Positions 3,696 through 58,914 of a stretch of DNA of 64,000 nt are shown here, piece by piece. The DNA lies in the NCBI GenBank assembly GCA_000989515.1, contig LBOM01000005.1, positions 2,709-66,708 of the forward strand, given 5' to 3'. The notes under the pieces were generated by a model. That model had not been told where the DNA came from. It worked only from the letters and a program-made list of their open reading frames with translations, and made no database searches. The stretch's first letter is position 1, and each line of letters begins with the position of its first letter. This stretch comes from Candidatus Nomurabacteria bacterium GW2011_GWE1_32_28. Its GTDB lineage: Bacteria; Patescibacteriota; Minisyncoccia; Phycocordibacterales; UBA9973. Position numbers and translations under genes: made by a program.

Positions 3696-5456
3696 ATGCA
3701 AAAACAAAAACAAAAAAAAGTTAATAATCAGTCAGGTGCTGCAATGTTGGTGTCTATTGTTTTTTTTCTTTTTATTTCTCTTGCTATAATTTCTGGTCTT
3801 GTTTCACCATCTATTCGTGAATTTAAAAATGCTAATGTTGATTTAAGTTCAAAGAGATCATTTTTCTTAGCTGAATCAGGTATTGAAGATGCATTTTATA
3901 GAATATTAAAAAATAAAATGATAGGAACAAATGAAAATATTACGCTCGATTCTAATTCGACCACGACTACTATTACAACTCTGGAAGGTGGTGAAAAGCA
4001 GATTATGTCACTTGGTGATGTTTCAAATTATGAAAGACAAATAGGTTTAAAACTTTCTACTGGCAGTGGTGTTTCTTTCAATTATGGAGTACAGGTAGGA
4101 CAAGGTGGTATTAATTTAGTTGGTAGTGGTACCGTAAACGGAAATATATATGCAAATGGTCCAATTACTGGAGATGGTTCTGCTATCATCACTGGTACAG
4201 CAATTTCAGCTAATAGTCCTGCTCTAGCTGCAGACCAAGAAAATGGAGTTGGAATTCCAGACTACAATGTTACATTTGGAAATACAAATAGTACTCAAGA
4301 TATTGCTCAAAGTTTTAAAGTTGGAACAGAAAGTCCATTAAATAAAATTCAAATTTATGTTAAAAAAGTTGGTAATCCAAGTAATGCTACTGTTAAGATA
4401 GTCAATGATGTAAATGGAAATCCTGGTACTACAATATATGCTAGTGGAACACTTTCTGCTTCTGCTGTTACTACTTCATATGGATGGTTAAATATTACTT
4501 TCTCGTCTAACCCGTTACTTGATGTTGCCACGACTTATTGGTTAATTCTTGATGCAAGTACTTCTAGTAGTAAATATTATGTTATTGGTGCATCAAATAA
4601 TGGATATTTAAATGGTGTTGGAAAGATTGGTCAATCAAGTGGGATCTGGAACAATACAACACCAGAAGGACTTGATTATTATTTTGGTATTTACCTTGGT
4701 GGTTTTAATGGACTTATACAAGGTAATTCTCTTAGTCAGTGGAATCAGCTTCATGTTGGTACTATATCTGGTTCTGCTCAGGCTCATACTGTAAATTATA
4801 CGAACGCTACTGGAAATATATATTGTCAAACAGGGACTGGTAACAACAAGCCTTGTATCTTGCAGACTGATCCGACTTATATAGATTTTCCTGTTTCAGA
4901 AGCAAATATTTTACAATGGAAAACAGAAGCAGAGGCAGGTGGAGTTTATAATGGTAATTATTCGGTGGGTTGGGCTGGTGCAACCCTGGGTCCTAAAAAG
5001 ATAATTGGAAATTTGACAGTCTCAGGTGGAGGTATCTTAAATGTTACTGGTAGACTATGGGTTACAGGAGAGATTACTCTTAATGGTGGTGGAACGATTA
5101 AACTTGATTCAAGTTATGGCTCAAATGATGAGGTAATTATTTCTGATGATGAAGTTTCTATTTCTGGAGGAGGTCATGCAAGCGGATCTGGTACTGAAGG
5201 AAGTTATATTATGATGTTTTCTACTTCTACTGAGAGTGATGCAATGTTGATTTCTGGTGGAGCTGGTGCTGTTATTGCATACGCTCCTTTTGGCACTATC
5301 ACTATCTCTGGTGGTGCTTCTCTAAAAGAAGCTACAGGATATAGAATAATTGTCTCTGGTGGATCTAGTATTACTTATGAATCTGGTTTGACTAATAATA
5401 ATTTTTCTAGTGGACCTTCTGGTTCATGGGTAGTAGAAGAATGGATGGAGAAATAA
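3696..5456 (+). CDS. Large (586 aa) pilin-like / PilX-type minor pilin with Gly/Ser/Thr-rich beta-rich C-terminal region
   Basis: N-terminal SG|AAMLVSIVFFLFISLAII hydrophobic prepilin-like helix without Glu+5; last gene of the pilus cluster. Confidence 0.45.
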   Translation: MQKQKQKKVNNQSGAAMLVSIVFFLFISLAIISGLVSPSIREFKNANVDLSSKRSFFLAESGIEDAFYRILKNKMIGTNENITLDSNSTTTTITTLEGGEKQIMSLGDVSNYERQIGLKLSTGSGVSFNYGVQVGQGGINLVGSGTVNGNIYANGPITGDGSAIITGTAISANSPALAADQENGVGIPDYNVTFGNTNSTQDIAQSFKVGTESPLNKIQIYVKKVGNPSNATVKIVNDVNGNPGTTIYASGTLSASAVTTSYGWLNITFSSNPLLDVATTYWLILDASTSSSKYYVIGASNNGYLNGVGKIGQSSGIWNNTTPEGLDYYFGIYLGGFNGLIQGNSLSQWNQLHVGTISGSAQAHTVNYTNATGNIYCQTGTGNNKPCILQTDPTYIDFPVSEANILQWKTEAEAGGVYNGNYSVGWAGATLGPKKIIGNLTVSGGGILNVTGRLWVTGEITLNGGGTIKLDSSYGSNDEVIISDDEVSISGGGHASGSGTEGSYIMMFSTSTESDAMLISGGAGAVIAYAPFGTITISGGASLKEATGYRIIVSGGSSITYESGLTNNNFSSGPSGSWVVEEWMEK

Positions 5457-5484: not shown

Positions 5485-6270
5485 ATGTCTAAAAATACTG
5501 TAAATAAAATTACAAAAAAAATAGTATGTGGTAATTGGAAGATGAATCCGCGTTCTTCAGTAGAAGCAGAGAAATTATTTCTTGAAATCATAAAAGAACT
5601 TCCAAGTATTAAAAAAACTGATGTAGTTATTTGTCCTCCTTTTTTATATTTAGAAAAATTTAGAAAAATTTCTAAAAAGATAACATTGGGTGCACAAGAT
5701 GCCTTTATTGGAAATATTGGTGCTTATACTGGAGAGATCTCACCTGAAATGCTTTGTAGTATTGGTTGTAAATATGTTATTTTGGGTCACTCAGAAAGAC
5801 GCACATTAGGAGAAAATAATAATGATATAAATAAAAAAATAAAATCCACGCTTTCTTCTGGACTTGTTCCTGTTGTTTGTGTTGGAGAAAATATGAGAGA
5901 TGAAAATCATGAATATTTAAATTTTATAAAGACACAGATAGAAGAGTCTCTGGATAAAGTTTCCAGAAATTCTATCTCGAAGATTGTTATTGCTTATGAG
6001 CCAGTTTGGGCTATAGGCAAAGGGGCATTACCTGCAACCCCAGAAGAGTTTAGAGAAATGAATATTTTTATTAGGAAAGTTTTAAGTGATAAATTTGGAG
6101 TTAAGGATATTAAAAATATTAGGATTATTTACGGAGGATCAGTTGACGAAAAAAATACTGAAGAATTTATTAAAAATGGTCATGCAGATGGCTTTCTTCT
6201 AGGAAGAGCAAGCCTAGATCCAAAAAAGTTTTCTAAAATTATAAAAATATGCGAAGCATTAAACAAATAA
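5485..6270 (+). CDS. tpiA: Triosephosphate isomerase
   Basis: CGNWKMN N-terminal motif, AYEPVWAIG(K)G active-site region, GGS...LVGGASL C-terminus. Confidence 0.85.
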   Translation: MSKNTVNKITKKIVCGNWKMNPRSSVEAEKLFLEIIKELPSIKKTDVVICPPFLYLEKFRKISKKITLGAQDAFIGNIGAYTGEISPEMLCSIGCKYVILGHSERRTLGENNNDINKKIKSTLSSGLVPVVCVGENMRDENHEYLNFIKTQIEESLDKVSRNSISKIVIAYEPVWAIGKGALPATPEEFREMNIFIRKVLSDKFGVKDIKNIRIIYGGSVDEKNTEEFIKNGHADGFLLGRASLDPKKFSKIIKICEALNK

Positions 6271-17233: not shown

Positions 17234-20200
17234 ATGGATAAAGATATAAGTAAATCAGAAGCAGCGCTTCGAGAAGAGGCTGTTTTAGAATTTTGGAAAG
17301 AAAGTAAGATTTTTCAAAAGTCTCTAGAAAAAGAAGCACCAAAAGGTGAATTTATTTTTTATGAAGGTCCACCAACTGCAAATGGTAAACCTGGAATTCA
17401 TCATCTTGAAGCAAGAGCATTTAAAGATGCGATACCTAGATATAAAACAATGCGAGGGTATCATGTTCGCAGAAAAGGCGGATGGGATACACATGGTTTG
17501 CCTGTGGAGCTTCAGGTAGAAAAGAAACTAAATTTAGATTCAAAAATTGCAATTGAAAAATATGGAATTGCAAAGTTTAATCAAGGTTGCAAAGAAAGTG
17601 TTTGGGAATATACAGATCTTTGGAGTAAATTTACAGAACGTATTGGTTATTTTGTTGATCAAGAAAATGCTTATGTAACATATCATAATTCTTATATCGA
17701 GTCTGTCTGGGGTGTTCTTAAAAAAATAGATGAACAAAATTTACTTTATAAAGATTATAAAGTCGTACCTTGGTGTCCAAGATGTGGTACAGTTCTTTCT
17801 TCTCATGAGCTTGCTCAAGGATATGAAGATGTAAAAGATTTATCAGTGACAGTAAAATTTAAAATAAAAGGACAAGAAAATACTTATATTCTCGCTTGGA
17901 CGACGACACCTTGGACATTGCCTGGAAATGTTGCTTTGGCAGTAGGAGAGAAGATTGATTATGTAAAAGTTAGTTTAAATGGAGTTTTTTTAATTTTAGC
18001 AAAAGCACGTTTATCTATAATAGAAGGAGAATTTAAAATAATAGAAGAGATTAAAGGTAAAGACTTAATTGGATTAGAATATGAACCACTCTATCCTTTT
18101 TTAAAAGATACAATTTCTGAGAGCGAAAAACCTAAATTAAATAAAGCTTTTAAGATTTATGGAGCAGATTTTGTGACGACAGAAGATGGTACAGGTGTAG
18201 TACACACTGCTGTCATGTATGGACAAGATGATTTTGTATTGGGTACAGAGATTGGGTTACCAAAACATCATTTAGTTGGTCTTGATGGTGTCTTTTTAAA
18301 GGGTACAGGATTTCTAGAAGGTAGATTTGTTAAAGACGAAGAAGTTGCTATTGATATTATTAAAGATTTGGCGAATCGTTCAACTGATCCACTTTTATTT
18401 AAAAAAGAAAAATATGAGCACTCGTATCCTCATTGTTGGCGTTGTAAAACAGCTCTTATATATTATGCTCGTGACTCTTGGTATATCAAAATGTCTGATA
18501 AAAAAATAAAGGATAAAATGATACAAGAAAATAAAAGTATAAATTGGGAACCATCTCATATTCGTGATGGACGTTTTGGTGAATGGTTAAAAGATATTAA
18601 AGATTGGGCAATTTCTCGTGAACGTTATTGGGGGACACCTCTTCCTGTTTGGGAATGTGTTTCTTGTAAAAAAAGAGAAGTTCTTGGAAGTTTAGACGAA
18701 ATAAAAGAAAGAACAAAAAAATCTGGAAATAAATATTTTGTAATGAGACACGGTCAAGCAGAAAGTAATTTAAAAAATACAATAAGTTCTAAAGTTGAAG
18801 ATGTTGATCATTTAACTGAAAAAGGGAAAAAACAAGTTTTTGATTCTTTGTCTGAGTTAAAAAATAAAAAAATTGATTTTATAATCTCTTCTGATTTTAT
18901 GAGAACAAAAGAAACAGCAGAGATTATAAAAAAAGGACTAGGGATTTCTAATAATAATTTAATTTTTGATAAAAGAATTTGGGAATTATCTGCTGGGATA
19001 TTTGATGGTAATACATGGGATAATTTTTGGGAAGTCCGTGAGAACGGAGAAGGTTATTTTTACAAACCAGAGGGTGGTGAATCACACAAAGATCTCAAGT
19101 TGAGAGTTATTAGTTTTTTATATGATTTAGAAAAAAAATACAAAGATAAGAATATTTTAATCATAACTCATGAAGGACCAGCACGTCTTCTTATTGCTGG
19201 GTTAAAAGGTTTTAATGATATTAATACTATAGAATATTTAAAAGATAATATTGTAAAATTTGATAATGCTGAAATTAAAGAACTAGACTTTGTTTCTATT
19301 CCACATAATGAGAGTTATGAGCTTGATTTACATAGACCATATATTGATGATATAGAAATTGAATGTGAATGTGGTGGAGATCTAATAAGAACAAAAGAAG
19401 TCATGGATGTTTGGTTTGATTCTGGTGCGATGCCTTTTGCTCAAGATCATTATCCGTTTGAAAACAAAGAATGGGTAGATAAAAAAGGTTATCCTGCAGA
19501 TTTTATCTCTGAGGCAATAGATCAGACTCGTGGATGGTTTTATACATTACACGCTGTTGGTGTATTGATGGGACGTGGTAAGGCCTATAAAAACGTTATA
19601 TGTTTAGGTCATTTACTTGATTCAAAGGGTAAAAAGATGTCTAAATCTCTTGGTAACATTGTAGATCCTTGGTCTATGATCGAAAAATATGGAGTAGATA
19701 CATTGCGACTTTGGATGTATTCTGTAAATCAGCCTGGTGAATCAAAGAATTTTGATGAAAAAACCGTTATAGAACTTCATAGACAAGTTTTTGGTTTACT
19801 TTATAATGTTTTAGCTTTTTACGAACTTTATAGAGATATACAACTAGAAACTATTGAGTATAAAAAGTCAGAAAATATTTTAGATAAATGGATTTTAGCT
19901 AGACTTGATGAGTTAATAGATTTTACGACTAAACATCTAGATGATTATAAATTACTTGAACCGACTAGGGCGATAAGAGATTTTATTGGAGATCTTTCTA
20001 CCTGGTATTTGCGTCGCTCAAGAGATAGGATAAAAGATGGAGACAAAGAAGCAAAGCAGACCTTATATTTTGTTTTAAAAAATCTTTCAAAGATAATGGC
20101 ACCATTTACACCTTTTGCCGCTGATGATATATGGTTAAAACTTAAAAATGAAAAAGACATAGAAAGTATTCATTTAGCAGAATGGCCCAAATCATCAAAA

Positions 20201-20716
20201 ACAGTTTTTGATATTTTTAGTAATGGTAAAAATAAAATTTTAGAAGAAATGAAAAAAGTTCGTGAGATTGTTACATTAGGATTTGAAGCTCGACAAAAAG
20301 CAGGTATAAAGGTTCGTCAACCATTAGCGAAGATTCAAATCAAAAATCATACTCTTGATAAAGAGTATGATGAATTAATAAAAGATGAATTAAATATAAA
20401 AGAAATAAAAGAAAATAAAAATATTGAAAGAGGTGTTCTGCTTGATATAGAGATTACAGAAGAATTAAAAGAAGAAGGATGCTATCGTGAATTTGTAAGA
20501 AGCGTGCAGGATATGCGAAAAAATATTGGTCTTACTCCCAGCGATGTTATCTCTCTTTTTATTGAAACGAATGATAAAGGTAAAAAATTAATTCAAAAGT
20601 TTGAGATTGATTTACTTAAAGTAGTTCTAGCCTTAAAAGTAGAATTTAAAGAAAATGAAGGGGAATCTTTAGAGATTGATGAGTTAGTGTTTAAAATTCA
20701 AATAGAAAAAAGATAA
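17234..20716 (+). CDS. ileS: Isoleucyl-tRNA synthetase with an inserted ~195-aa histidine-phosphatase (PGAM/SixA-like) domain
   Basis: PTANGKPGIHHL (HIGH), WISRERYWGTPLP, KMSKS (KMSKSLGN), Zn-knuckle ECECGG; the insertion carries the RHGQAESN and ITHEGPARLL motifs. Confidence 0.9.
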   Translation: MDKDISKSEAALREEAVLEFWKESKIFQKSLEKEAPKGEFIFYEGPPTANGKPGIHHLEARAFKDAIPRYKTMRGYHVRRKGGWDTHGLPVELQVEKKLNLDSKIAIEKYGIAKFNQGCKESVWEYTDLWSKFTERIGYFVDQENAYVTYHNSYIESVWGVLKKIDEQNLLYKDYKVVPWCPRCGTVLSSHELAQGYEDVKDLSVTVKFKIKGQENTYILAWTTTPWTLPGNVALAVGEKIDYVKVSLNGVFLILAKARLSIIEGEFKIIEEIKGKDLIGLEYEPLYPFLKDTISESEKPKLNKAFKIYGADFVTTEDGTGVVHTAVMYGQDDFVLGTEIGLPKHHLVGLDGVFLKGTGFLEGRFVKDEEVAIDIIKDLANRSTDPLLFKKEKYEHSYPHCWRCKTALIYYARDSWYIKMSDKKIKDKMIQENKSINWEPSHIRDGRFGEWLKDIKDWAISRERYWGTPLPVWECVSCKKREVLGSLDEIKERTKKSGNKYFVMRHGQAESNLKNTISSKVEDVDHLTEKGKKQVFDSLSELKNKKIDFIISSDFMRTKETAEIIKKGLGISNNNLIFDKRIWELSAGIFDGNTWDNFWEVRENGEGYFYKPEGGESHKDLKLRVISFLYDLEKKYKDKNILIITHEGPARLLIAGLKGFNDINTIEYLKDNIVKFDNAEIKELDFVSIPHNESYELDLHRPYIDDIEIECECGGDLIRTKEVMDVWFDSGAMPFAQDHYPFENKEWVDKKGYPADFISEAIDQTRGWFYTLHAVGVLMGRGKAYKNVICLGHLLDSKGKKMSKSLGNIVDPWSMIEKYGVDTLRLWMYSVNQPGESKNFDEKTVIELHRQVFGLLYNVLAFYELYRDIQLETIEYKKSENILDKWILARLDELIDFTTKHLDDYKLLEPTRAIRDFIGDLSTWYLRRSRDRIKDGDKEAKQTLYFVLKNLSKIMAPFTPFAADDIWLKLKNEKDIESIHLAEWPKSSKTVFDIFSNGKNKILEEMKKVREIVTLGFEARQKAGIKVRQPLAKIQIKNHTLDKEYDELIKDELNIKEIKENKNIERGVLLDIEITEELKEEGCYREFVRSVQDMRKNIGLTPSDVISLFIETNDKGKKLIQKFEIDLLKVVLALKVEFKENEGESLEIDELVFKIQIEKR

Positions 20717-45962: not shown

Positions 45963-46622
45963 ATGAGAAAAAATCCTCTTGTAACTAATCAGTATTATCA
46001 TATTTATAATAGAGGAGTCGATAAAAGAGATATTTTTATGAATAAATCTGATTTAGATAGATTTATTTTGAGTGTAAAGGAATTTAATATAGTTAAACCT
46101 ATAGGTAGTATTAAAGAGCGATTAATAGAATTAAAAGCCCCGTCGGGTGTTGGACACCCGACGGGGCTTGTTTCTATTGTCTGTTATTGTTTTAATCCAA
46201 ATCATTTTCATTTTATTTTAAAACAAGAAGTAGATGGTGGAATTTCAGAATTTTTTAAGCGTTTACTTGGTGGATATACAAATTATTTTAATTTAATACA
46301 CAAGAGAAATGGGGCATTATTTCAAGGAAGATTTAAGTCTAATTTGGTTGACGATGAAGAATATTTTTTAAAAATTCGTCCTTATGTGCATTTAAATTAT
46401 TTAGTACATGATATTCCAAAAGAAAAAAAGTATTTAATATCATCAAGCAAGAAAGAATATGATACTAATAAATTTACTATTGTTTCAAAAAAAGAAGCAA
46501 AAGAACTTTTGGATTTTTATAATGGTAATCTAAATTATAAAAAAGAATGCTTAGATGTAATTTCTTTTATTCGAGAAGAAAGAGGATTAACTTCTTTGTT
46601 TGAAGAAGAATTATTACCATAA
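45963..46622 (+). CDS. HuH-family Y1 (IS200-like / REP-associated tyrosine transposase, RAYT-like) protein; possibly degenerate
   Basis: YYHIYNRGVDKRDIF N-terminal strand, HuH motif NPNHFHFIL, C-terminal GALFQGRFKS...DDEEY...YVHLNYLVHD resembling RAYT LWQRGFYDH...YIHFNPV; a 31-bp perfect palindrome (46137-46167) lies in frame inside the gene. Confidence 0.5.
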   Translation: MRKNPLVTNQYYHIYNRGVDKRDIFMNKSDLDRFILSVKEFNIVKPIGSIKERLIELKAPSGVGHPTGLVSIVCYCFNPNHFHFILKQEVDGGISEFFKRLLGGYTNYFNLIHKRNGALFQGRFKSNLVDDEEYFLKIRPYVHLNYLVHDIPKEKKYLISSSKKEYDTNKFTIVSKKEAKELLDFYNGNLNYKKECLDVISFIREERGLTSLFEEELLP

Positions 46623-46723: not shown

Positions 46724-47374
46724 ATGGATAAAATAAAAATATTTTTTGGTGCTCACAAAATTTTGAAAATATTTATGTGGGCTTTTTTAATTCTACTTGG
46801 ATTGTATATTATTTTGGTTGCTTTTCGTGTTGTTAATCTTTTTAATTTAGATAAGACAAATGCACAAGTAGAAAAGATTCATAATACAAAACTTTCTATA
46901 GATGATGTGATGGGTGTAAATCTTCCTTCTGATCCTGGTGTTGAAGCTGATAAAACTGTGCAAGGTATCGATGCTAATGAAAATGGTATTCGTGATGATG
47001 TGGAGATAGCTATATTTAAAGAATATCCCAATTCTGCAAAAACTCGCGCAGTCCTTTTGCAGTATGCTTTAGCTTTGCAGATGGAAGTAATTCAACCTAT
47101 TGAGAATACAGTTACTGTGACAGAAATTATAACAGAACAAAGCAGGGCAGATACTTGTGTTGCCGATACTCTTGTACCCAGAGAAAGTCCTGAATCTTCA
47201 AGACATTATTCTGATGTGGAAAAAATTAACACTTTTATTAAATCTATTGAAGGTAAACAATTTAATACAGAGGTAAGAAAATCAAATCATCAAAATTTTA
47301 TGAAAAATCTTAGAAGTTTTGGAGAATCAACTAATGAAATTTGTGACATAGATATTTTGAAGTTAACAGATTAA
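46724..47374 (+). CDS. Hypothetical membrane-anchored protein (216 aa)
   Basis: N-terminal TM FMWAFLILLGLYIILVAF; acidic soluble domain. Confidence 0.3.
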   Translation: MDKIKIFFGAHKILKIFMWAFLILLGLYIILVAFRVVNLFNLDKTNAQVEKIHNTKLSIDDVMGVNLPSDPGVEADKTVQGIDANENGIRDDVEIAIFKEYPNSAKTRAVLLQYALALQMEVIQPIENTVTVTEIITEQSRADTCVADTLVPRESPESSRHYSDVEKINTFIKSIEGKQFNTEVRKSNHQNFMKNLRSFGESTNEICDIDILKLTD

Positions 47375-47391: not shown

Positions 47392-48030
47392 ATGAAAAAT
47401 AGAATATTGTTTATTTTTATCTTGATCTCATTATTTTCATTAAGTTCTAGGGTTTTTGCAAGTGGATTATGTTCTCAGAATGGCTACACTATCGCAACTA
47501 TTAATGGAATATTTACTAATGAAGATGGTGCAAAAGAAAATAGAAATAATTTAAAAAAAGGTTTACCTCTAACTTATAACAACCAACCACTTACAGTAGA
47601 CTATCTATATAACCCAACGCATCTTGCTGGGCTAGGTGATGTTTTTGATGCTATTGCACAGGGGGCTTTCTTTCAAAGATCGGACTATGACCTTACAGAA
47701 ATGCTAAATGATGCAAGTCAGAAGATTGGAACCCAGAAACTTCTTTTAGTGGGTCATTCTCAAGGTAATTTTTATACAAATAATTTTTATGACAAAGTTT
47801 CATCACGTCCTGGTGGGATTCCTGGGAGATCTATCAGTGTGTATGGTGTAGCAAGCCCAGCGGGTTATGTGGATGGTGGAGGAAAATATTTAACTTCAAA
47901 TACAGATGAGGTTATAAATTTTGTTAGAGAAAAAAATACAATTGATGTCTTATCACCCAATATTCATATACCGTTGCAAGCAAGTGATGGCAATGGGCAT
48001 AGTTTCTCAGATGTATATTTGAAATACTAG
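47392..48030 (+). CDS. Secreted alpha/beta-hydrolase (lipase/esterase-like) domain protein; probably the N-terminal part of a fusion with the downstream adhesin ORF
   Basis: Signal peptide MKNRILFIFILISLFSLSSRVFA; nucleophile elbow LLLVGHSQGNFY (GxSxG). Confidence 0.5.
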   Translation: MKNRILFIFILISLFSLSSRVFASGLCSQNGYTIATINGIFTNEDGAKENRNNLKKGLPLTYNNQPLTVDYLYNPTHLAGLGDVFDAIAQGAFFQRSDYDLTEMLNDASQKIGTQKLLLVGHSQGNFYTNNFYDKVSSRPGGIPGRSISVYGVASPAGYVDGGGKYLTSNTDEVINFVREKNTIDVLSPNIHIPLQASDGNGHSFSDVYLKY

Positions 48031-48060
48031 GGTGATAGAATTGTTTCTGATATTAAATCA

Positions 48061-51039
48061 TTGCTAAATAATTTAAAAGAAAATGATGAACAGGAAATAG
48101 GGGAGCCTTGTATTTCTCCACCAGAACTTTCTTTACTTCATAAAGTTCAGGGTGTTTTGTTTGCTGTAGCTGACCCGACTGCAGGAGTAGTGAAAGTCGG
48201 ATTAATTAGTTCTTATAATGCAGGTTCTTATATCGCTGATGGTGTGCATAATGCTGGATTAGCAGTAGGAAACGGGATACATGATACTAGCTTAAAAATA
48301 AATAATATGGTTTCAGGATTGTTGGCAAATGCTATTGGAAGTTTGCCTGATGCTGGTGTTATAGCTGCTGTTCCTTTTGGTGTATTAGATTCTGAAAATA
48401 TAGAAGCTGGGGCGGAGGAATTGCCTCCGCCTGCTTCGTCTGTAGAGAAAGAGACCGTCCTTCCACAAGAGATACCTGAGATAAAAGATGAAGTAACTAT
48501 TCCTACTGAACCTGAACCTATTTTAGTTGAGCCAGTTCCTGAAAAAGAAGAAGTTGTGGATGTTGTACCAGAGAAGATTGATCCTATCGTATCTAATACC
48601 ACATATTATGGTGGAGGTGGCGGAAGTAGTACACCTACAGATATAGTTGCTCCAGTTATTACAATTCTTGGAAATAATCCTGAGACAATTACAAAAGATT
48701 CTATTTATCTTGATGCAGGTGCGACAGCTTTGGACGATGTTGATGGTGTGATAGAAGTAGTTGTCACTGGTGTTGTGGATATTAGTGTCGTTGGTGTTTA
48801 TATTATTACTTATACTGCGACAGATCTTTCTAATAATATTGCGACAATGATACGTACTATCAACGTTGTTTTGCCTCCACCCCCACCACTTGCTACTTTT
48901 ACAATTGACTCTGATACTACATTAGTTGCTGGTGAATATAATTATGATAATTTAATTATTACAAATAATGCGGTACTTACCTTAGATAGCAATCGTGATT
49001 CACTAGACCCATTTAAGGGTGTAAAAATAAATGCAGTAAATATAACTATTGAAAATGGTTCATCTATTTCTGCTCAAAGTAAAGGATACGCGAATGGTCC
49101 AGGAACTTATGCAGAGAATAGTCCTGGTGCGAGTTATGGTGGAACAGGTGATAAAAATATTTCAACATCGATATATGGTAGTGCGACCAAGCCTATTGAT
49201 TTAGGTAGTGGGGGATATAATTATTTTCGTGATGGTGGAGCTATTCGTCTTGTCGTCACAGATACTCTCATAAATAATGGTATTGTTTCTTCGAATGGAG
49301 ATAGTACATCGAGTGGTGGAAGTATTTATGTAACAACAAAAAATTTGACTGGAAGTGGTTCATTTAGTGCAAATGGTGGAGGATTATACTCTACTTCCGT
49401 TATTCACGGTTCTGGTAGTGGAGGTAGAATTGCTATATATTATGAAGTTAATTCTTTTTCTGGAATAGTAGAAGCAAAAGGTGGATGTGGAAGTTATGAT
49501 GGATATTCTAGAACTTGTGCGATGGATGGAACAGTTGGATATTTTGATACAATAAATAATGATCTTTCTGTATATAATTCATGGCAATTTTTAAAAGTAG
49601 ATAGTCCATTTAATTATAATAAAATTATTTTAACAAATGGTTCGACAATAAGATCAGAAAAAGAAGTTAATATAACAGCAGACGATCTTCTTTTAGATAA
49701 GATTTCTAATTTTACATTAAACGAAGATCAGATTATAAATATTTCGTCAATTAGGTTAAATGAAAATTCTAGATTAACACTTTCTGGAAGTGAAATGATA
49801 ACTGCTGACAATTTAATTATTAGTGGCAATTCTGATGTCACTATAGTTATAGAGAAAATATTTTCTTTAACTATTCCGAACATTAATATTGAAAGTGGAT
49901 CTTCTATTTCAGCTGATACAAAAGGGTATTTTGGTGGTCCGGGTGCTCCTTTGGTATACAGGGCTGGTGCAAGCTATGGAGGAGCAGGCGAGGGAAGCGA
50001 TGATGCATTAACTTATGGTTCAGTTTTGGAACCTGTAGATTTTGGAAGTGGTGGAAATGGTGATCTACGTGGTGGTGGAGCTATTCGTCTTGTCGTCACA
50101 GATACTTTCATAAACAATGGTATTGTTTCTTCAAATGGAAACAGCACATCGAGTGGTGGAAGTATATATATAACAGTAAAGAATTTATCTGGAAGTGGAA
50201 AATTTAGTGCAAACGGAGGAGGGCTTTATTCTTCTTCTGTTATATTTGGTTCTGGTGGAGGTGGTAGAAATGCAATTTATTATGAGAGTAATCTTTTTAC
50301 TGGAACAGTGGAAGCAAAAGGTGGATGTGGAAGTTATGATGGATATTCTAGAGTCTGTGCAAAAGATGGAACAGTAAAAATGATTGATACTACAAAGAGT
50401 TCAGTAAAACAAATTACGACATTTGATTTTATGAGTTTGACACCAAACGTTGTTGGAATGATTGATGAAGTTAATCATGCTGTTTCTCTAACTGTTCCTT
50501 TTGGTACTGCTGTGACAGCTCTCGTCTCAACTATTACAATTTCAGAAAAAGCGATAATTAGTCCAGATACTAATGTAGCTCAAGATTTTACAAATGCTGT
50601 TACTTACACAGTGACTGCAGAGAATGGTTCTACTCAGGATTATATTGTCACAGTTTTGGTCGCTTCTGATCCAAATCCTCTACCTGATGATACGATACCT
50701 TCAATATTAAGCTCTTCATTAAATGGAATTGCTAGTGATGTGGCGACCAATCCTGTCGTAGACCTTGTTTCTATTGCTTTTATTGCAAATGAAAATGTAG
50801 ATTGGGTTTCTATAAAAATTGAGAAAGAAGACGATGAAACTGTTTACAAATATTTTTATCCAGGGATTGATTGTGATGGGCAGGATGCTTGTACTAAATC
50901 ATGGAATGGTTTATTAGCGGGAGATTCAATAGCACCAATCGGTGTATATAAGATAAGGGTTCGTATTCGAGATCTGATTAGCCTAGAAGAATATGATTTT
51001 TCCCATTTATATAAAATTACAGTAGATACTTCTCTATAA
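48061..51039 (+). CDS. Large surface adhesin-like protein with bacterial Ig-like (DUF5011-type) domain and tandemly duplicated beta-rich about 330-aa domains; same frame as the upstream lipase ORF, separated only by one TAG
   Basis: VITILGNNPETITKDSIYLDAGATALDDVDGVIEVVVTG...YIITYTATDLSNN Ig-like motif; internal duplication GGAIRLVVTDT(L/F)INNGIVSSNG...EAKGGCGSYDGYSR; no signal peptide, TTG start. Confidence 0.5.
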   Translation: MLNNLKENDEQEIGEPCISPPELSLLHKVQGVLFAVADPTAGVVKVGLISSYNAGSYIADGVHNAGLAVGNGIHDTSLKINNMVSGLLANAIGSLPDAGVIAAVPFGVLDSENIEAGAEELPPPASSVEKETVLPQEIPEIKDEVTIPTEPEPILVEPVPEKEEVVDVVPEKIDPIVSNTTYYGGGGGSSTPTDIVAPVITILGNNPETITKDSIYLDAGATALDDVDGVIEVVVTGVVDISVVGVYIITYTATDLSNNIATMIRTINVVLPPPPPLATFTIDSDTTLVAGEYNYDNLIITNNAVLTLDSNRDSLDPFKGVKINAVNITIENGSSISAQSKGYANGPGTYAENSPGASYGGTGDKNISTSIYGSATKPIDLGSGGYNYFRDGGAIRLVVTDTLINNGIVSSNGDSTSSGGSIYVTTKNLTGSGSFSANGGGLYSTSVIHGSGSGGRIAIYYEVNSFSGIVEAKGGCGSYDGYSRTCAMDGTVGYFDTINNDLSVYNSWQFLKVDSPFNYNKIILTNGSTIRSEKEVNITADDLLLDKISNFTLNEDQIINISSIRLNENSRLTLSGSEMITADNLIISGNSDVTIVIEKIFSLTIPNINIESGSSISADTKGYFGGPGAPLVYRAGASYGGAGEGSDDALTYGSVLEPVDFGSGGNGDLRGGGAIRLVVTDTFINNGIVSSNGNSTSSGGSIYITVKNLSGSGKFSANGGGLYSSSVIFGSGGGGRNAIYYESNLFTGTVEAKGGCGSYDGYSRVCAKDGTVKMIDTTKSSVKQITTFDFMSLTPNVVGMIDEVNHAVSLTVPFGTAVTALVSTITISEKAIISPDTNVAQDFTNAVTYTVTAENGSTQDYIVTVLVASDPNPLPDDTIPSILSSSLNGIASDVATNPVVDLVSIAFIANENVDWVSIKIEKEDDETVYKYFYPGIDCDGQDACTKSWNGLLAGDSIAPIGVYKIRVRIRDLISLEEYDFSHLYKITVDTSL

Positions 51040-51091: not shown

Positions 51092-51370
51092 TTGTTATTA
51101 TTATTAGGAGTAGTATTATTAGTAAGGAATAATTCTTTAACAAATCTTAGAGGTATTGTTATGGAACAAAATTGTTGTGTTGCTTATTTGGGTCAATGTG
51201 ACTTTAAAATTCTTTCTCGTATAGACGGTCATTATAAAGAATTTTTTTATGTTTGTATGAACTGTGGAAGAGAAAAGATTTTAGATAGAATTTCTCTTAA
51301 TCATAAAAATCATAAGTATTCAGAAGGAGATCAAATAAAAATGGAAGAGCTATCTTTACAGGGCAAGTAG
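51092..51370 (+). CDS. Small Cys-rich (zinc-ribbon-like) protein; probable true start at M 51161
   Basis: MEQNCCVAYLGQCDF...YVCMNCGREKIL gives a CC-x6-C ... C-x2-C pattern. Confidence 0.3.
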   Translation: MLLLLGVVLLVRNNSLTNLRGIVMEQNCCVAYLGQCDFKILSRIDGHYKEFFYVCMNCGREKILDRISLNHKNHKYSEGDQIKMEELSLQGK

Positions 51371-51405
51371 ATTATTTATAAATAATCTACTTGCCTCTTT
51401 TTTTA
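51363..51405 (+). terminator. Rho-independent terminator
   Basis: GCAAGTAGATTATTTATAAATAATCTACTTGC perfect hairpin followed by CTCTTTTTTT. Confidence 0.75.
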
Positions 51406-54181: not shown

Positions 54182-55082
54182 TAAATACTTTATAGAAATA
54201 GAAAAAAGATGTCCACACTTTCCCCATTGGGGCTTAGGTTGACATCTTTTTTCGTTTAATATATACTCTTTCAATCAGTATGATTACATTAAGAAACAAG
54301 TTTAAAAGGCGGTTTTAAGCAGACTTTCTTTTGTCTGTTGACCGCTTAAAAAGCGGTTTTTTATTTGGTAAGTATGGCTTGAAAATTGACAACTTAAATC
54401 CTATCCTAGTATTCTTGGACAACTTGCAAAAGTGTGTCCGGCATGCAGCCTGTATGCTTAGGGTCTTTTCAAAGCTAGAGATAGGAAATTGTTTAAATAA
54501 TTTTGAATGCCGAGCGGTCGGACTAGATTTTATTATAAGCATTGTTTTATCCTTATGTAATGTAAGGATTGTGATTTATAAATTTCTTAACAGGAAATTT
54601 AAGGGCGTATGGTGGATGCCTTGACTTTAAGAGGCGATGAAGGACGTGGCGTTGCTGCGATAAGCTTCGGGGAGGTGCTTAGCTACCTTTGATCCGGAGA
54701 TTTCCGAATGGGGAAACCCTATCAAGTAAACCTTGATAACTTTTATCTTTATGATAAAAGAGCATACCCTGGGAAGTGAAACATCTCAGTACCAGGAGGA
54801 ATAGAGACAAATATGTATTTCCTTAGTAGCGGCGAGCGAAAAGGAAGAAGCCCAAACCGTTCTCGCAAGAGGGCGGGGTTGTAAGATGACAATGTAGTTT
54901 ACTAGGAGAGTTAAAAAATAAATTATTAGTTGAAGTTGCTGGAAAGCGACACCGTAGGGGGTGATAGTCCCGTAAACGAAAATAATTTATCTCTTTTATT
55001 GTTATTCTTGAGTACCCCAGGACATGAATGGCCGGGGGGAATCTAGCGGAACTAACCGCTAAGGCTAAATACTCTTAAAGAT

Positions 55083-55119
<37 letters not shown>

Positions 55120-56640
55120 CAGCCCGATTAGGGCGGTGAAATAGACCTGAAACCATATGTCTACAAGGAGTCGGAGCAGGTATTTATATCTGCAACGGCG
55201 TGCCTATTGAAGAATGAGCCAACGAGTTTATTCATACTGCAAGGCTAAGCTGGCTAAAACAGCAGAGCCGAAGGGAAACCGAGTGTTAATAGCGCGAATG
55301 AGTAGTATGCATAAGACCCGAAGCCAGGTGAGCTTGCCATGAGCAGGTTGAAGTTTGTCGAAAGACAAATGGAGGACCGAACCGGTAGATCGTACAACGT
55401 CTTCGGATGACTTGTGGTAAGGAGTGAAAAGCTAATCGAACCTGGTAATAGCTGGTTCTCTCCGAAATAGCTTTAGGGCTAGCGTCACTGGAAGGTTTCG
55501 ACAGGGAGCAATCTCGCGAAACCTATCAAACTCCGAATACCAGAAACCATAGCTTGGCAGTTAGGCCATGGGGGCGAAGCTCCATTGGCCAAAAGGGAAA
55601 CAGCCCAGATCTCAAAATAAGGTCCCTAAATTTATGCTAAGTGTAAGATAAGAAGGTGGAATTTCTCTGACAATGAGGAGGTTGGCTTAGAAGCAGCCAT
55701 CCTTTAAAGATAGCGTAACAGCTCACTCATCTAGAGATTTTGCGTCGACATAGTACCGAATTTGAGGATTTCGTTTTTCTTCGGAAGAACGGAGTGGTAG
55801 GAGAGTGTTCCAATCTGCTGTGAAGTAGGACTCGTGAGAGCCTATGGAGCGTTTGGAAGTAAGAATGTTGGCACAAGTAACCGCAATGAGGGTGAGATCC
55901 CCTCACGTCGAAAGATCAAGGTTTCCTTGGTAATGTCAATCAGCCAAGGGTTAGTCGGGCCTAAGGGAATGGAGAAATCCGTACTCGATGGACATAGGGT
56001 TAATATTCCCTGACTTCTGTATTTTGTGATGGGACGACGGAGTGTAGTATGTATTGCTCATTATTGGATTTGAAGTTTGTTTACTAAAGATGAGGTGTAG
56101 GAAAATCCGCACACTGCTTTCAATGGCAAATCTAAGGTAAATGAAAAGTCTTAAGCCTCGGTTTAGGACAATAATACAAAGCACGCTTCCAAGAAAAATC
56201 TCTAAACTTAAAAATATAGAATCCGTACCGCAAACCGACACAGGTGATCAGGTCGAGTAGACCAAGACGAACGAGTGAGTGGTCCCCAAGGAACTCGGCA
56301 AAAAAGCAGCCGTAACTTCGGGATAAGGCTTGCCCCCACCACTTTGGATATTTCTAAATATTTGAGAGTGTTGGGAGAGTAAGATTTAAGTATCGAGCAA
56401 AAAGAGACAATGAGGAATTAAATTAAAGCTCTTCATCATTTTTTATTTCACAGAATTTTTTTGTGAAGTATCTAAAGTGGTGGGGGCCGCAGCGAAAGTT
56501 TCTCTGGCAACTGTTTACCAAAAACACAGCTCCCTGCGAACTCGTAAGAGGATGTATAGGGGGTGACACCTGACCAATGCCAGAAGGTCAAATATCGGCG
56601 GTGTATGTCGCAAGATGTATGCAGACTGATATAAGCCCTG

Positions 56641-56683
<43 letters not shown>

Positions 56684-57707
56684 ACCTTGTCGGGTAAGTT
56701 CCGACGCGCACGAATGGTGTAATGACTGGAGAACTGTCTCGGGGACCAGCTCGGTGAAAATACAATGCCGGTGAAGATGCCGGCTAAGTGCAGTTAGACG
56801 AAAAGACCCTAGAAGCTTTACTATAACTTGATATTGAGCATGTTTTTAAACTGCGTAGAATAGATGGGAGAGGTTTGAAGTGTACGGTTTCGGCTGTATT
56901 CTACTCGTCAGTGAAATACCATTCTTTTTGAAGGCATGTTCTAACCAATACGGCAAAAACGTATTGAGACAGTATCTGGTGGATAGTTTTACTGGGGCTG
57001 TACCCTCCTAAAAAGTAAAGGAGGGGTTTAAAGGTTAGCTAGGCGCGAATGGAAACCGTGCCGATAGTGTAATGGCACAAGCTAGCTTGACTGTAAGAGG
57101 TACATCTCAAGCAGGTGGGAAACCAGAACATAGTGATCCGACCATACGCATTAGACGCGGTGGAAGCTCAACGGATAAAAGCTACTCTAGGGATAACAGG
57201 CTAGTTCCGCCTAAGAGTTCATATCGACGGCGGAGTTCGGCACCTCGATGTCGGCTCACCTTAGCGCGGCGGTGGAGAAGCTGCCAAGCGTTTCAGACCG
57301 TTCTTCAGTCAATTATTAAATTGACTTCAGAACAGTCTGGATCCTCAGAGGAATAGTGAACGAAAGTGAACTACTGTTTTAATCGAAATTAACCATATTG
57401 CTGTTTGCAATATCACGGCGGTCGCGTTAAATTTATATTAACAAATCACGCGATGAAGTCGGGGTTTTCGGTGGAATCCTATCACATTTATGTGAGGACA
57501 ATACCGAGAAGAAAATTTATTTTTTCTTTGTAGAGACTACAAACCGACCCCCTTAAATTGGGGAATGTATAGTCCAATCCCATAAGTAATTATGGAAATT
57601 GCTAAAGCCTAAGGCCTAATGCCTAAAGCCTAGCATGTAGATGCGTGAGACAGGTTGGTCTCCTATCTACTGCACTCGTTGATTCTTGAGAAGATTTGCT
57701 CCTAGTA

Positions 57708-58527
57708 GGCCCGGAAGGGCTTTGCTACTTCACGAAGAAATTTGTGATGAAAAAGTGGCTAATAACGGTGAAGTCTTCATTGATGTTTCTGATTTGAGAA
57801 AAATAATATCATTCGATCCTTGATATTATGATTCGCTTGAGGACCAGAAATATGATAAGATAATACCGTGGGAAGTCGATTTAAAATTATGAAAGAAATT
57901 GAGAAAGCTTATATTGCTGGTTTTCTTGATGGAGATGGTAGTCTAATGCTTCAAATTAAAAAAAGAAGTGATAGTAAACGAGGAATTCGTTTTATGACAA
58001 CCATTTGTTTCTATCAAGACACTAGACATGAAAAGACTTTATATTGGATGAAAAAGATTTTAGGTATTGGTTATATTTCCAGAAGAAATGATGGAATGAC
58101 TGAACTTAGAATAAATGGATATGTGCAGATTGCAAAAATTCTTAAAGATTTATTGCCTTTTGTAAAATTCAAAAAAATACAAGCTAATATTTTATACAAA
58201 GCTTGTAATCTTTTATCTAAAACAAAGTTTAGTAATCTCTCGGAAAAACAATTAATTAAGCTCGTTGATTTAATTTTAGTTATTCAAGGTGAAAACTATG
58301 TTACTAAAAAGAAAAAAACCAAAAATGAATTGTTTAAAATTTTAAATTTGACCCCGTAACGACTTGTTTCCGACTTTATGTCGGAACGGACTTACATAAC
58401 ACTGGAAAGTTCTAATATATTTAATATATGAGAACAGGTTTATGTTTGTAATACGCCAACGCCTTAACTTTAATTAAAGAAAGGCGAAGATATAGTCTGC
58501 ACTCCTAGAAATAGGGGAGATATGTGA
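57708..58527 (+). mobile_element. Intron (likely group I) in 23S rRNA, inserted inside the sarcin-ricin loop sequence, carrying a homing-endonuclease ORF
   Basis: Exon sequence CTCCTAGTA (ends 57707) resumes as CGAGAGGACCGGAG at 58528; the intervening about 820 nt contains ORF 57868-58359. Confidence 0.55.
57868..58359 (+). CDS. LAGLIDADG-family homing endonuclease (intron-encoded)
   Basis: YIAGFLDGDGSLML LAGLIDADG motif; 163 aa; located within 23S rRNA. Confidence 0.8.
   Translation: MGSRFKIMKEIEKAYIAGFLDGDGSLMLQIKKRSDSKRGIRFMTTICFYQDTRHEKTLYWMKKILGIGYISRRNDGMTELRINGYVQIAKILKDLLPFVKFKKIQANILYKACNLLSKTKFSNLSEKQLIKLVDLILVIQGENYVTKKKKTKNELFKILNLTP

Positions 58528-58790: not shown

Positions 58791-58914
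<124 letters not shown>

Follow-up and report, generated by a model that had tools for sequence, protein, structure and literature searches.

A single in-frame TAG codon divides the gene for a large secreted protein in a Nomurabacteria population

The 64,000-nucleotide (nt) stretch of Candidatus Nomurabacteria DNA analysed here, referred to below as the window, holds at positions 47392-51039 one long gene that is interrupted by a single TAG codon. We propose that the interruption is probably a young, lineage-specific nonsense mutation that turned the gene into a fresh pseudogene, which public records list as two hypothetical proteins. The ancestral gene would have encoded a single Sec-secreted protein of ~1215 residues, in which a hydrolase was followed by a linker, an immunoglobulin (Ig)-like domain, a beta-solenoid, a DUF5018 domain and a beta-sandwich. 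A nonsense mutation would have struck codon 213, most parsimoniously as a C-to-T transition from CAG (Gln) to TAG, where CAG is the ancestral codon that we infer. Termination at the TAG would yield a 212-residue pre-protein, or ~189 residues after cleavage of the signal peptide. The 1002 codons downstream would go untranslated, or would be translated weakly, through reinitiation at the TTG at 48061 or occasional readthrough by a near-cognate tRNA; anything made by reinitiation would lack the signal peptide needed to reach the cell surface. We take the mutation to be young, since the remainder of the frame is perfectly intact.

One reading frame with one internal stop

The open reading frames (ORFs) at 47392-48030 and 48061-51039 share frame 1 in both the ORF list and the translation. 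Translating 47392-51039 as a single unit gave 1215 codons with one internal stop, the TAG at 48028-48030 (codon 213), confirming the preliminary description of this region, which had reported two same-frame ORFs with no other stop between them. The 5' fragment of the ancestral gene (47392-48030, forward strand) comprises 212 codons, starts with ATG and ends at the premature TAG, which is followed by a G and occupies the position of a Gln, Arg, Glu or Lys codon in most aligned orthologues. The rest of the ancestral gene, as delineated by Pfam and an AlphaFold2 model, consists of the 1002 codons after the TAG (48031-51039, forward strand). The downstream ORF called at 48061-51039 covers 992 of these codons from a TTG start (48061-48063, forward strand), and the interval between the TAG and the TTG is ten codons, GDRIVSDIKS, that are conserved sequence in homologues. 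In the alignment the TTG falls at residue 224, a position taken by Ser in most orthologues and occasionally by Leu, and this context indicates that it is an ordinary internal codon and not an evolved start. The longest ORF in the other frames over the region is at most 124 amino acids (aa), so the long open frame past the stop did not arise by chance. Public records list two proteins for the gene (UR10_C0003G0244/0245, from GW2011_GWF1_31_48), and both ORF products are identical to proteins in several Candidatus Nomurabacteria metagenome-assembled genomes (MAGs), comprising UR10_C0003G0244/0245, the UR25 contig entries G0046/47 and four more NCBI records.

The continuous form of the gene was readily recovered from relatives. 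A query spanning the junction matched many proteins that cover 90-100% of it without interruption, and the part after the stop, used as query, retrieved dozens of homologues of 1190-1270 aa, for example P0063 (1237 aa), P0064 (1231), P0072 (1238) and P0087 (1262). These long homologues carry the signal peptide and HSQG domain first and the same C-terminal domains last; in total, 43 full-length homologues of 1150-1300 aa joined an N-terminal HSQG domain to these C-terminal domains. For the comparison at the DNA level we used 80 species-representative Paceibacteria genomes (Nomurabacteria, Yonathbacteria, Harrisonbacteria and others; L002-L081), which are 80 of 290 genome matches. The codon aligned with the TAG was a sense codon in all 80 loci, and the ORF continued for 460-1460 codons where the contig allowed. 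Gln was specified in 32 loci (CAA in 27, CAG in 5), Arg in 22, Glu in 11, Lys in 8 and other residues in the remaining 7, and across homologues position 213 was occupied variously by Q, R, K, E, A, S, N and G. We consider these loci orthologous because most of them share the gene order of the window: in 75/80 loci the gene immediately before the lipase gene is a homologue of the one for the 216-aa protein (46724-47374), and rplJ and rplL lie downstream in 44/80 and 41/80, respectively. Among the short N-terminal homologues checked (P0018, P0027, P0031 and others), none shared a stop at the same site. These results support the earlier proposal of one secreted fusion protein of ~1200 aa cut by a nonsense codon; an arrangement as two separate genes divided at this site was found in none of the 80 loci.

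The hydrolase module and the extracellular part

The first ORF opens with MKNRILFIFILISLFSLSSRVFA followed by SG, which we judged by reading to be a classic Sec-type signal peptide of residues 1-23, laid out as MKNR-ILFIFILISLFSL-SSRVFA with the mature protein beginning at SG. The nucleophile elbow GHSQG (G-x-S-x-G) is at residues 121-125, so that both features ascribed to this ORF in the preliminary description are present. In a 25-sequence alignment Ser123, Asp172 and His203, in that order, were invariant, and all three lie upstream of the stop. The TAG sits 10 residues past the candidate catalytic His203, inside the hydrolase domain, in a region that is among the best-conserved parts of the protein (GHSFSDVYLKY-[Q]-GDRIVSDIKSSLxxLKxNDEQxxxxPCISPPEL). 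The conserved motif SDVYLKY[Q]GDRIVSDIKSSL crosses the stop, and in the same alignment I217, L225 and L228, downstream of it, were invariant and C240 nearly so.

We modelled residues 1-343 with AlphaFold2 from the 25-sequence alignment, placing an X at position 213 (predicted template modelling score, pTM, 0.71). The predicted local distance difference test score (pLDDT) was 89-98 over residues 31-70 and 101-230 and lower between them, with values of 94-98 at 200-230. The helix directly after the stop (residues 215-226; 48034-48069, forward strand) had a pLDDT of 96-98 and was part of the modelled fold, in which it forms the C-terminal helix of the hydrolase core; the TAG severs it. Given the conserved residues on both sides of the stop and the place of this helix in the fold, the stop truncates a domain rather than separating domains. 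The truncated product would keep Ser123, Asp172 and His203 and lose helix 215-226 and the region of the conserved Cys240, and on the evidence of the model it is probably unstable or inactive.

Against the PDB, Foldseek placed cutinases, Bacillus subtilis lipase A (LipA) and acetyl-xylan esterase at the top of the matches to the hydrolase model (E 3e-4 to 1e-3, probability 0.99-1.0). No Pfam or NCBIfam family exceeded its threshold over this domain, the best being Abhydrolase_10 (E 0.24), and a profile search of PDB sequences gave no match. Because no curated family matches, the lipase-like assignment rests on the motif, the invariant Ser, Asp and His and the predicted fold. These features suggest a minimal alpha/beta-hydrolase of lipase/cutinase type with predicted esterase or lipase activity. 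Like cutinases, LipA and acetyl-xylan esterase, the module combines the predicted fold with a G-H-S-Q-G elbow, the order Ser-Asp-His and a C-terminal helix after the His; the similarity is weak (Foldseek E ~3e-4, 12-19% identity), and here the module is the N-terminal part of a protein of ~1200 aa.

The N-terminus of the downstream ORF (LLNNLKENDEQEIGEP...) is hydrophilic and has no signal peptide, which agrees with the preliminary description, as does its TTG start. The Ig-like/DUF5011 domain reported there was confirmed by Pfam as PF16403 (Bact_surface_Ig-like, formerly DUF5011; E 3.8e-13, 49.7 bits against a cut-off of 27), and a second match was to PF16410 (DUF5018; E 4.4e-14, 52.5 bits against a cut-off of 38.2). 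The AlphaFold2 model of the 1002 residues after the TAG had a mean pLDDT of 80.5 and mostly exceeded 90 from residue 205 on. Numbered from the TAG, and all on the forward strand, the model begins with a disordered Pro/Glu-rich linker at residues 43-200. The Ig-like PF16403 domain follows at residues ~205-285 (~48658-48867), located by both Pfam and the model, and then a predicted beta-solenoid of ~500 residues with two repeats at ~290-790 (~48898-50400). The DUF5018 Ig-like domain, again placed by Pfam and the model, occupies ~795-880 (~50386-50661), and a predicted C-terminal beta-sandwich occupies ~890-1000 (~50698-51030).

Foldseek matched the downstream model to Bacteroides surface glycan-binding proteins, DUF5018 proteins and RbmA, and weakly to tapirins; these matches cover single Ig-like domains only, with a query-normalised template modelling score of at most 0.11. 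The likeness to the Bacteroides proteins and tapirins lies in PF16403/PF16410 and in the confidently predicted beta-solenoid and Ig-like architecture, known here from sequence and model. The fusion to a lipase-like domain and the conserved slot between the 216-aa membrane protein and rplJ-rplL are, by contrast, both specific to these Patescibacteria. The model thus depicts an architecture of extracellular type that would depend on the N-terminal signal peptide. The preliminary description had called this part an adhesin: the extracellular, beta-rich, Ig-domain architecture is borne out by prediction, and the adhesin label itself goes beyond it.

Within the gene, a direct repeat of 300 nt (49192-49491 and 50032-50331; 840-nt spacing) has 82% DNA identity and mirrors a duplicated beta-solenoid module, GGGAIRL...GGCGSYDGYSR.CA.DGTV. 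This identity is above that expected from the ~55% protein identity between orthologues, and for this reason gene conversion may keep the beta-solenoid repeats alike.

The position of the stop also bears on the possibility of a viable gene fission, in which a short secreted hydrolase and a 992-aa protein initiated at TTG 48061 by termination-reinitiation would both be functional products. An in-frame TTG does lie 10 codons past the stop, public annotations call two genes, and the catalytic Ser, Asp and His are all 5' of the stop. We found no Shine-Dalgarno motif ahead of genes in the window; the genome is thus not reliant on such sites, an internal start is possible, and TTG 48061 therefore cannot be judged by a ribosome-binding site. 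However, the cut falls inside the hydrolase fold and not between domains, the second product would have no signal peptide though its domains are of extracellular types, none of the 80 orthologous loci is organised in this way at this site, and the TTG itself is an ordinary codon at a position that is Ser in most orthologues. We consider fission quite unlikely.

Termination at the TAG, its status in the population and its age

Stop-codon usage was examined across the window. TAA closes 42 of the 52 long ORFs, TAG closes 9 and TGA a single one. The other eight ORFs that end in TAG have no same-frame continuation, and no other split gene was found in the window; the remaining same-frame neighbour pairs are unrelated genes (RecJ/RNase H, thymidylate kinase/MazG and class I aminoacyl-tRNA synthetase/PaaX-like). 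Since these eight ORFs terminate at TAG without continuation, TAG is an ordinary stop in this genome. ORFs of at least 100 aa read with the standard code total ~83% of the window, overlaps counted in, and no transfer RNA (tRNA) gene was found in the 64 kb. A change of the genetic code, or pyrrolysine, that would make TAG a sense codon in this organism is extremely unlikely on these grounds, and orthologues have plain codons for Gln, Arg, Glu or Lys there. In its favour stand the near absence of TGA as a stop (1/52) and the membership of the organism in the Candidate Phyla Radiation, where other lineages have alternative codes, with UGA reassigned in Gracilibacteria and Absconditabacteria. Reassignment of TAG was rejected on the window-wide stop usage.

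The local context of the TAG was inspected for signals of readthrough or phase variation, both of which the preliminary description had offered as options. The 121 nt at 48020-48140 fold no better than shuffled sequences (z = -0.27). No tandem repeat or homopolymer is present at 48028, the nearest tandem repeats being at 47766-47796 and 50043-50062. No close-set inverted-repeat pair brackets the TAG, and long-range pairs that span it (for example I1 and I8) are weak and AT-rich. A promoter and terminator scan revealed nothing specific near the junction (promoter-like sites, 27 against 25 expected). A G after the stop codon, as here, favours efficient termination in studies of E. coli. Phase variation was rejected on the lack of a repeat or invertible element at the site, and programmed readthrough or recoding is unsupported, with the stop in 0/80 orthologues, no RNA element and the context TAG-G. 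Our literature search on stop codons or readthrough in Nomurabacteria and Patescibacteria, on the MAG name and on lipase surface proteins returned nothing relevant.

A functional leaky stop, at which a near-cognate or suppressor tRNA would decode UAG-213 seldom but often enough to be of use, with the gene still under selection, deserves separate consideration. Such a reading would fit the 1002 open codons downstream, whose conserved sites are no more divergent than those of intact orthologues, and the variability of position 213 (Q, R, K, E, A, S, N, G), which implies that any inserted residue should be tolerated. It would also fit the occurrence of TAG as the sole allele in every assembly of the population examined, and the three other lineages with single in-frame stops and intact frames that are described below. 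On the other side, none of the 80 related species has a stop at the site, the stops of the other lineages are TAA at different positions with no common site or codon, and the window offers no downstream RNA structure and no tRNA gene, with eight other genes ending in TAG. A young mutation would leave the frame intact just as well. On balance a leaky stop is unlikely.

We compared the system with known cases of programmed readthrough (phage Q-beta A1, selenocysteine and pyrrolysine). The likeness lies in two same-frame ORFs separated by one stop, from which a short and a long product can be imagined; the difference is that here there is no conserved stop among the 80 orthologues, no RNA element, no tRNA and no second example in the window. 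Nonsense pseudogenes and split ORFs provide the closer parallel, having one in-frame stop in a conserved domain, intact orthologues, an open frame and halves annotated as adjacent genes. A gene broken by one nonsense codon is a well-known phenomenon, and the only peculiarity here is that the broken form is the sole allele in a clonal uncultivated population across many assemblies.

The status of the TAG in that population was assessed from independent records. Records of the upstream product (202 or 212 aa) exist for 14 contigs, and those of the 992-aa product for 19. Five copies of the locus were fetched, namely L001, which is identical to the window, and L082-L085; they derive from three ENA assemblies and two NCBI MAGs and include metaSPAdes- or MEGAHIT-style contigs and a 410-kb scaffold. 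All five carry the TAG, with 0 differences in the 3648 nt of the gene, and any differences between the copies and the window lie in the 23S ribosomal RNA (rRNA) region only. Because the same TAG occurs in five copies from different assemblies, random sequencing error is excluded, and with it one of the explanations considered in the preliminary description. The exact junction pattern of a sense allele of the same strain (for example CAG) was not found in JGI metagenome contigs, where a protein-based scan revealed relatives at no more than 64% identity. The comparisons indicate that the TAG is private to one essentially clonal groundwater Nomurabacteria population. That the T at 48028 is an artefact, or one of two alleles with many cells intact, is very unlikely: near-identical assemblies may share a site and partly share read sets, but the same base was obtained in five copies by different assemblers and projects, 19 contigs carry the downstream ORF, and the site has no homopolymer or repeat to provoke a systematic error.

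We searched the downstream 1002 codons for a second lesion and found none. About 4.0% of the possible point substitutions in the 3006 nt past the TAG would introduce a further stop, so that an unselected frame would stay open with a 54% chance at 0.5% divergence and a 9% chance at 2%. At columns at least 90% conserved among 23 orthologues, the window sequence showed 1 private change among 63 upstream of the stop and 5 among 158 downstream, values also seen among intact orthologues. These data fit a recent lesion and continued selection on the downstream part equally. Several points weigh against a fresh pseudogene. An intact frame and a normal conservation profile are equally expected under selection on a readthrough product; the strain copies, being identical across the gene, provide neither dating nor any sign of relaxed selection; and the loss of function of the truncated hydrolase is itself a prediction from the model. 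Of the options put forward in the preliminary description, recent pseudogenisation nevertheless remains the best fit.

Lesions in other lineages and the surrounding locus

Other lineages were also observed to carry lesions of their own, each private, in the same gene. Two came from the 80 species representatives: L003 (PMIU01000042.1) has a single in-frame TAA at codon 190 (nt 3896) in an otherwise open frame, and L014 (JBAZOQ010000016.1) has a single in-frame TAA at codon 115 (nt 2563), in the Gln of a conserved T-Q-K motif. The others, L090-L094, were reached from N-terminal fragments in the protein search. L093, a JGI contig whose N-terminal product (P0005) occurs on 4 contigs, is interrupted in the linker by a TAA in frame at codon 390 (nt 6168-6170). 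In L090 a 41-nt tandem duplication containing palindromes (GGCGGAGGCTACGCCTCCGCC...) shifts the frame at ~6050-6135, and L092 has a linker frameshift at 5903-6236. L094 and L091 are fragmented, and L091 looks like a low-quality assembly because rplJ is also broken there. Two candidates were discarded, the in-frame TGA of L015 being the natural C-terminus and the stop in the L040 homologue of the 216-aa protein lying upstream of the true start. Over 39,530 aligned codons, the genes next to it in these loci had no genuine in-frame stop; the contrast with 2 stops in ~18,400 hydrolase-domain codons is not significant. The lesions are suggestive of sporadic, independent inactivation of a long and apparently dispensable surface-protein gene, and because the lesion codons and positions differ they argue against a conserved recoding site.

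The nonsense codons of the window, L003 and L014, which are all those in the unbiased sample of species representatives together with the window, fall within the first 230 of ~1215 codons (P ~0.011-0.014 given the nonsense-target size, a post hoc value with n=3). It is conceivable, though highly improbable, that these nonsense codons of the N-terminal hydrolase module (TAG213, TAA190 and TAA115) act as a leaky, recurrent and reversible dimmer or off-switch of a costly or exposed surface protein in Patescibacteria. The N-terminal clustering is the sole hint in that direction; if it were so, residual readthrough would still supply some full-length secreted protein.

Under our proposal of a nonsense pseudogene, the two-protein entries should be joined into one or marked as a pseudogene, and the occasional natural knockouts imply that the gene is dispensable or costly under some conditions. 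The comparison also defines a widespread, uncharacterised Paceibacteria locus, in which a 216-aa membrane protein is followed by a secreted lipase-like/Ig-like/beta-solenoid protein of ~1200 aa beside rplJ-rplL. These bacteria are thought unable to make their own lipids, and such a protein is a plausible tool for cell contact or lipid scavenging.

The upstream 216-aa protein (46724-47374, forward strand), the conserved neighbour of the lipase gene, carries a transmembrane segment at its N-terminus and matches no Pfam or NCBIfam family. Its position suggests that it is a likely functional partner, for example an anchor, foldase or export helper. Further upstream, an ORF at 45963-46622 resembles an IS200/Y1 transposase, with weak matches to Pfam Y1_Tnp and to the NCBIfam REP-associated tyrosine transposase. 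It holds the same upstream position in 43/80 loci and behaves like a resident, perhaps domesticated gene rather than a mobile element. Between the surface-protein gene and rplJ lies a small Cys-rich ORF (51092-51396; 69 aa from its ATG) with CC...C and CxxC motifs, the 3' end of which overlaps a strong 16-bp hairpin with a T-tract at 51361-51396.

Elsewhere in the window, which is ~31% G+C, many starts are directly preceded by a TATAAT-like A/T-rich sequence, which together with the absence of Shine-Dalgarno motifs suggests leaderless or non-Shine-Dalgarno initiation in this genome. The class I aminoacyl-tRNA synthetase at 17234-20716 (1160 aa; tRNA-synt_1 and Anticodon_1) has a histidine-phosphatase domain (His_Phos_1, E 1.2e-26) at residues 502-661, an unusual insertion. 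Besides rplJ and rplL, the window carries the 23S rRNA (54589-57407) and 5S rRNA (58796-58901) genes, which are separated by a spacer of ~1.4 kb. Compared to the window, the other strain assemblies show insertions of 24, 17, 37 and 18 nt and a few substitutions, in the rRNA region only, and these may be rRNA insertions or assembly variants. An ORF in the 23S-5S spacer (57868-58359) is annotated as LAGLIDADG_1 in the identical contig L082.

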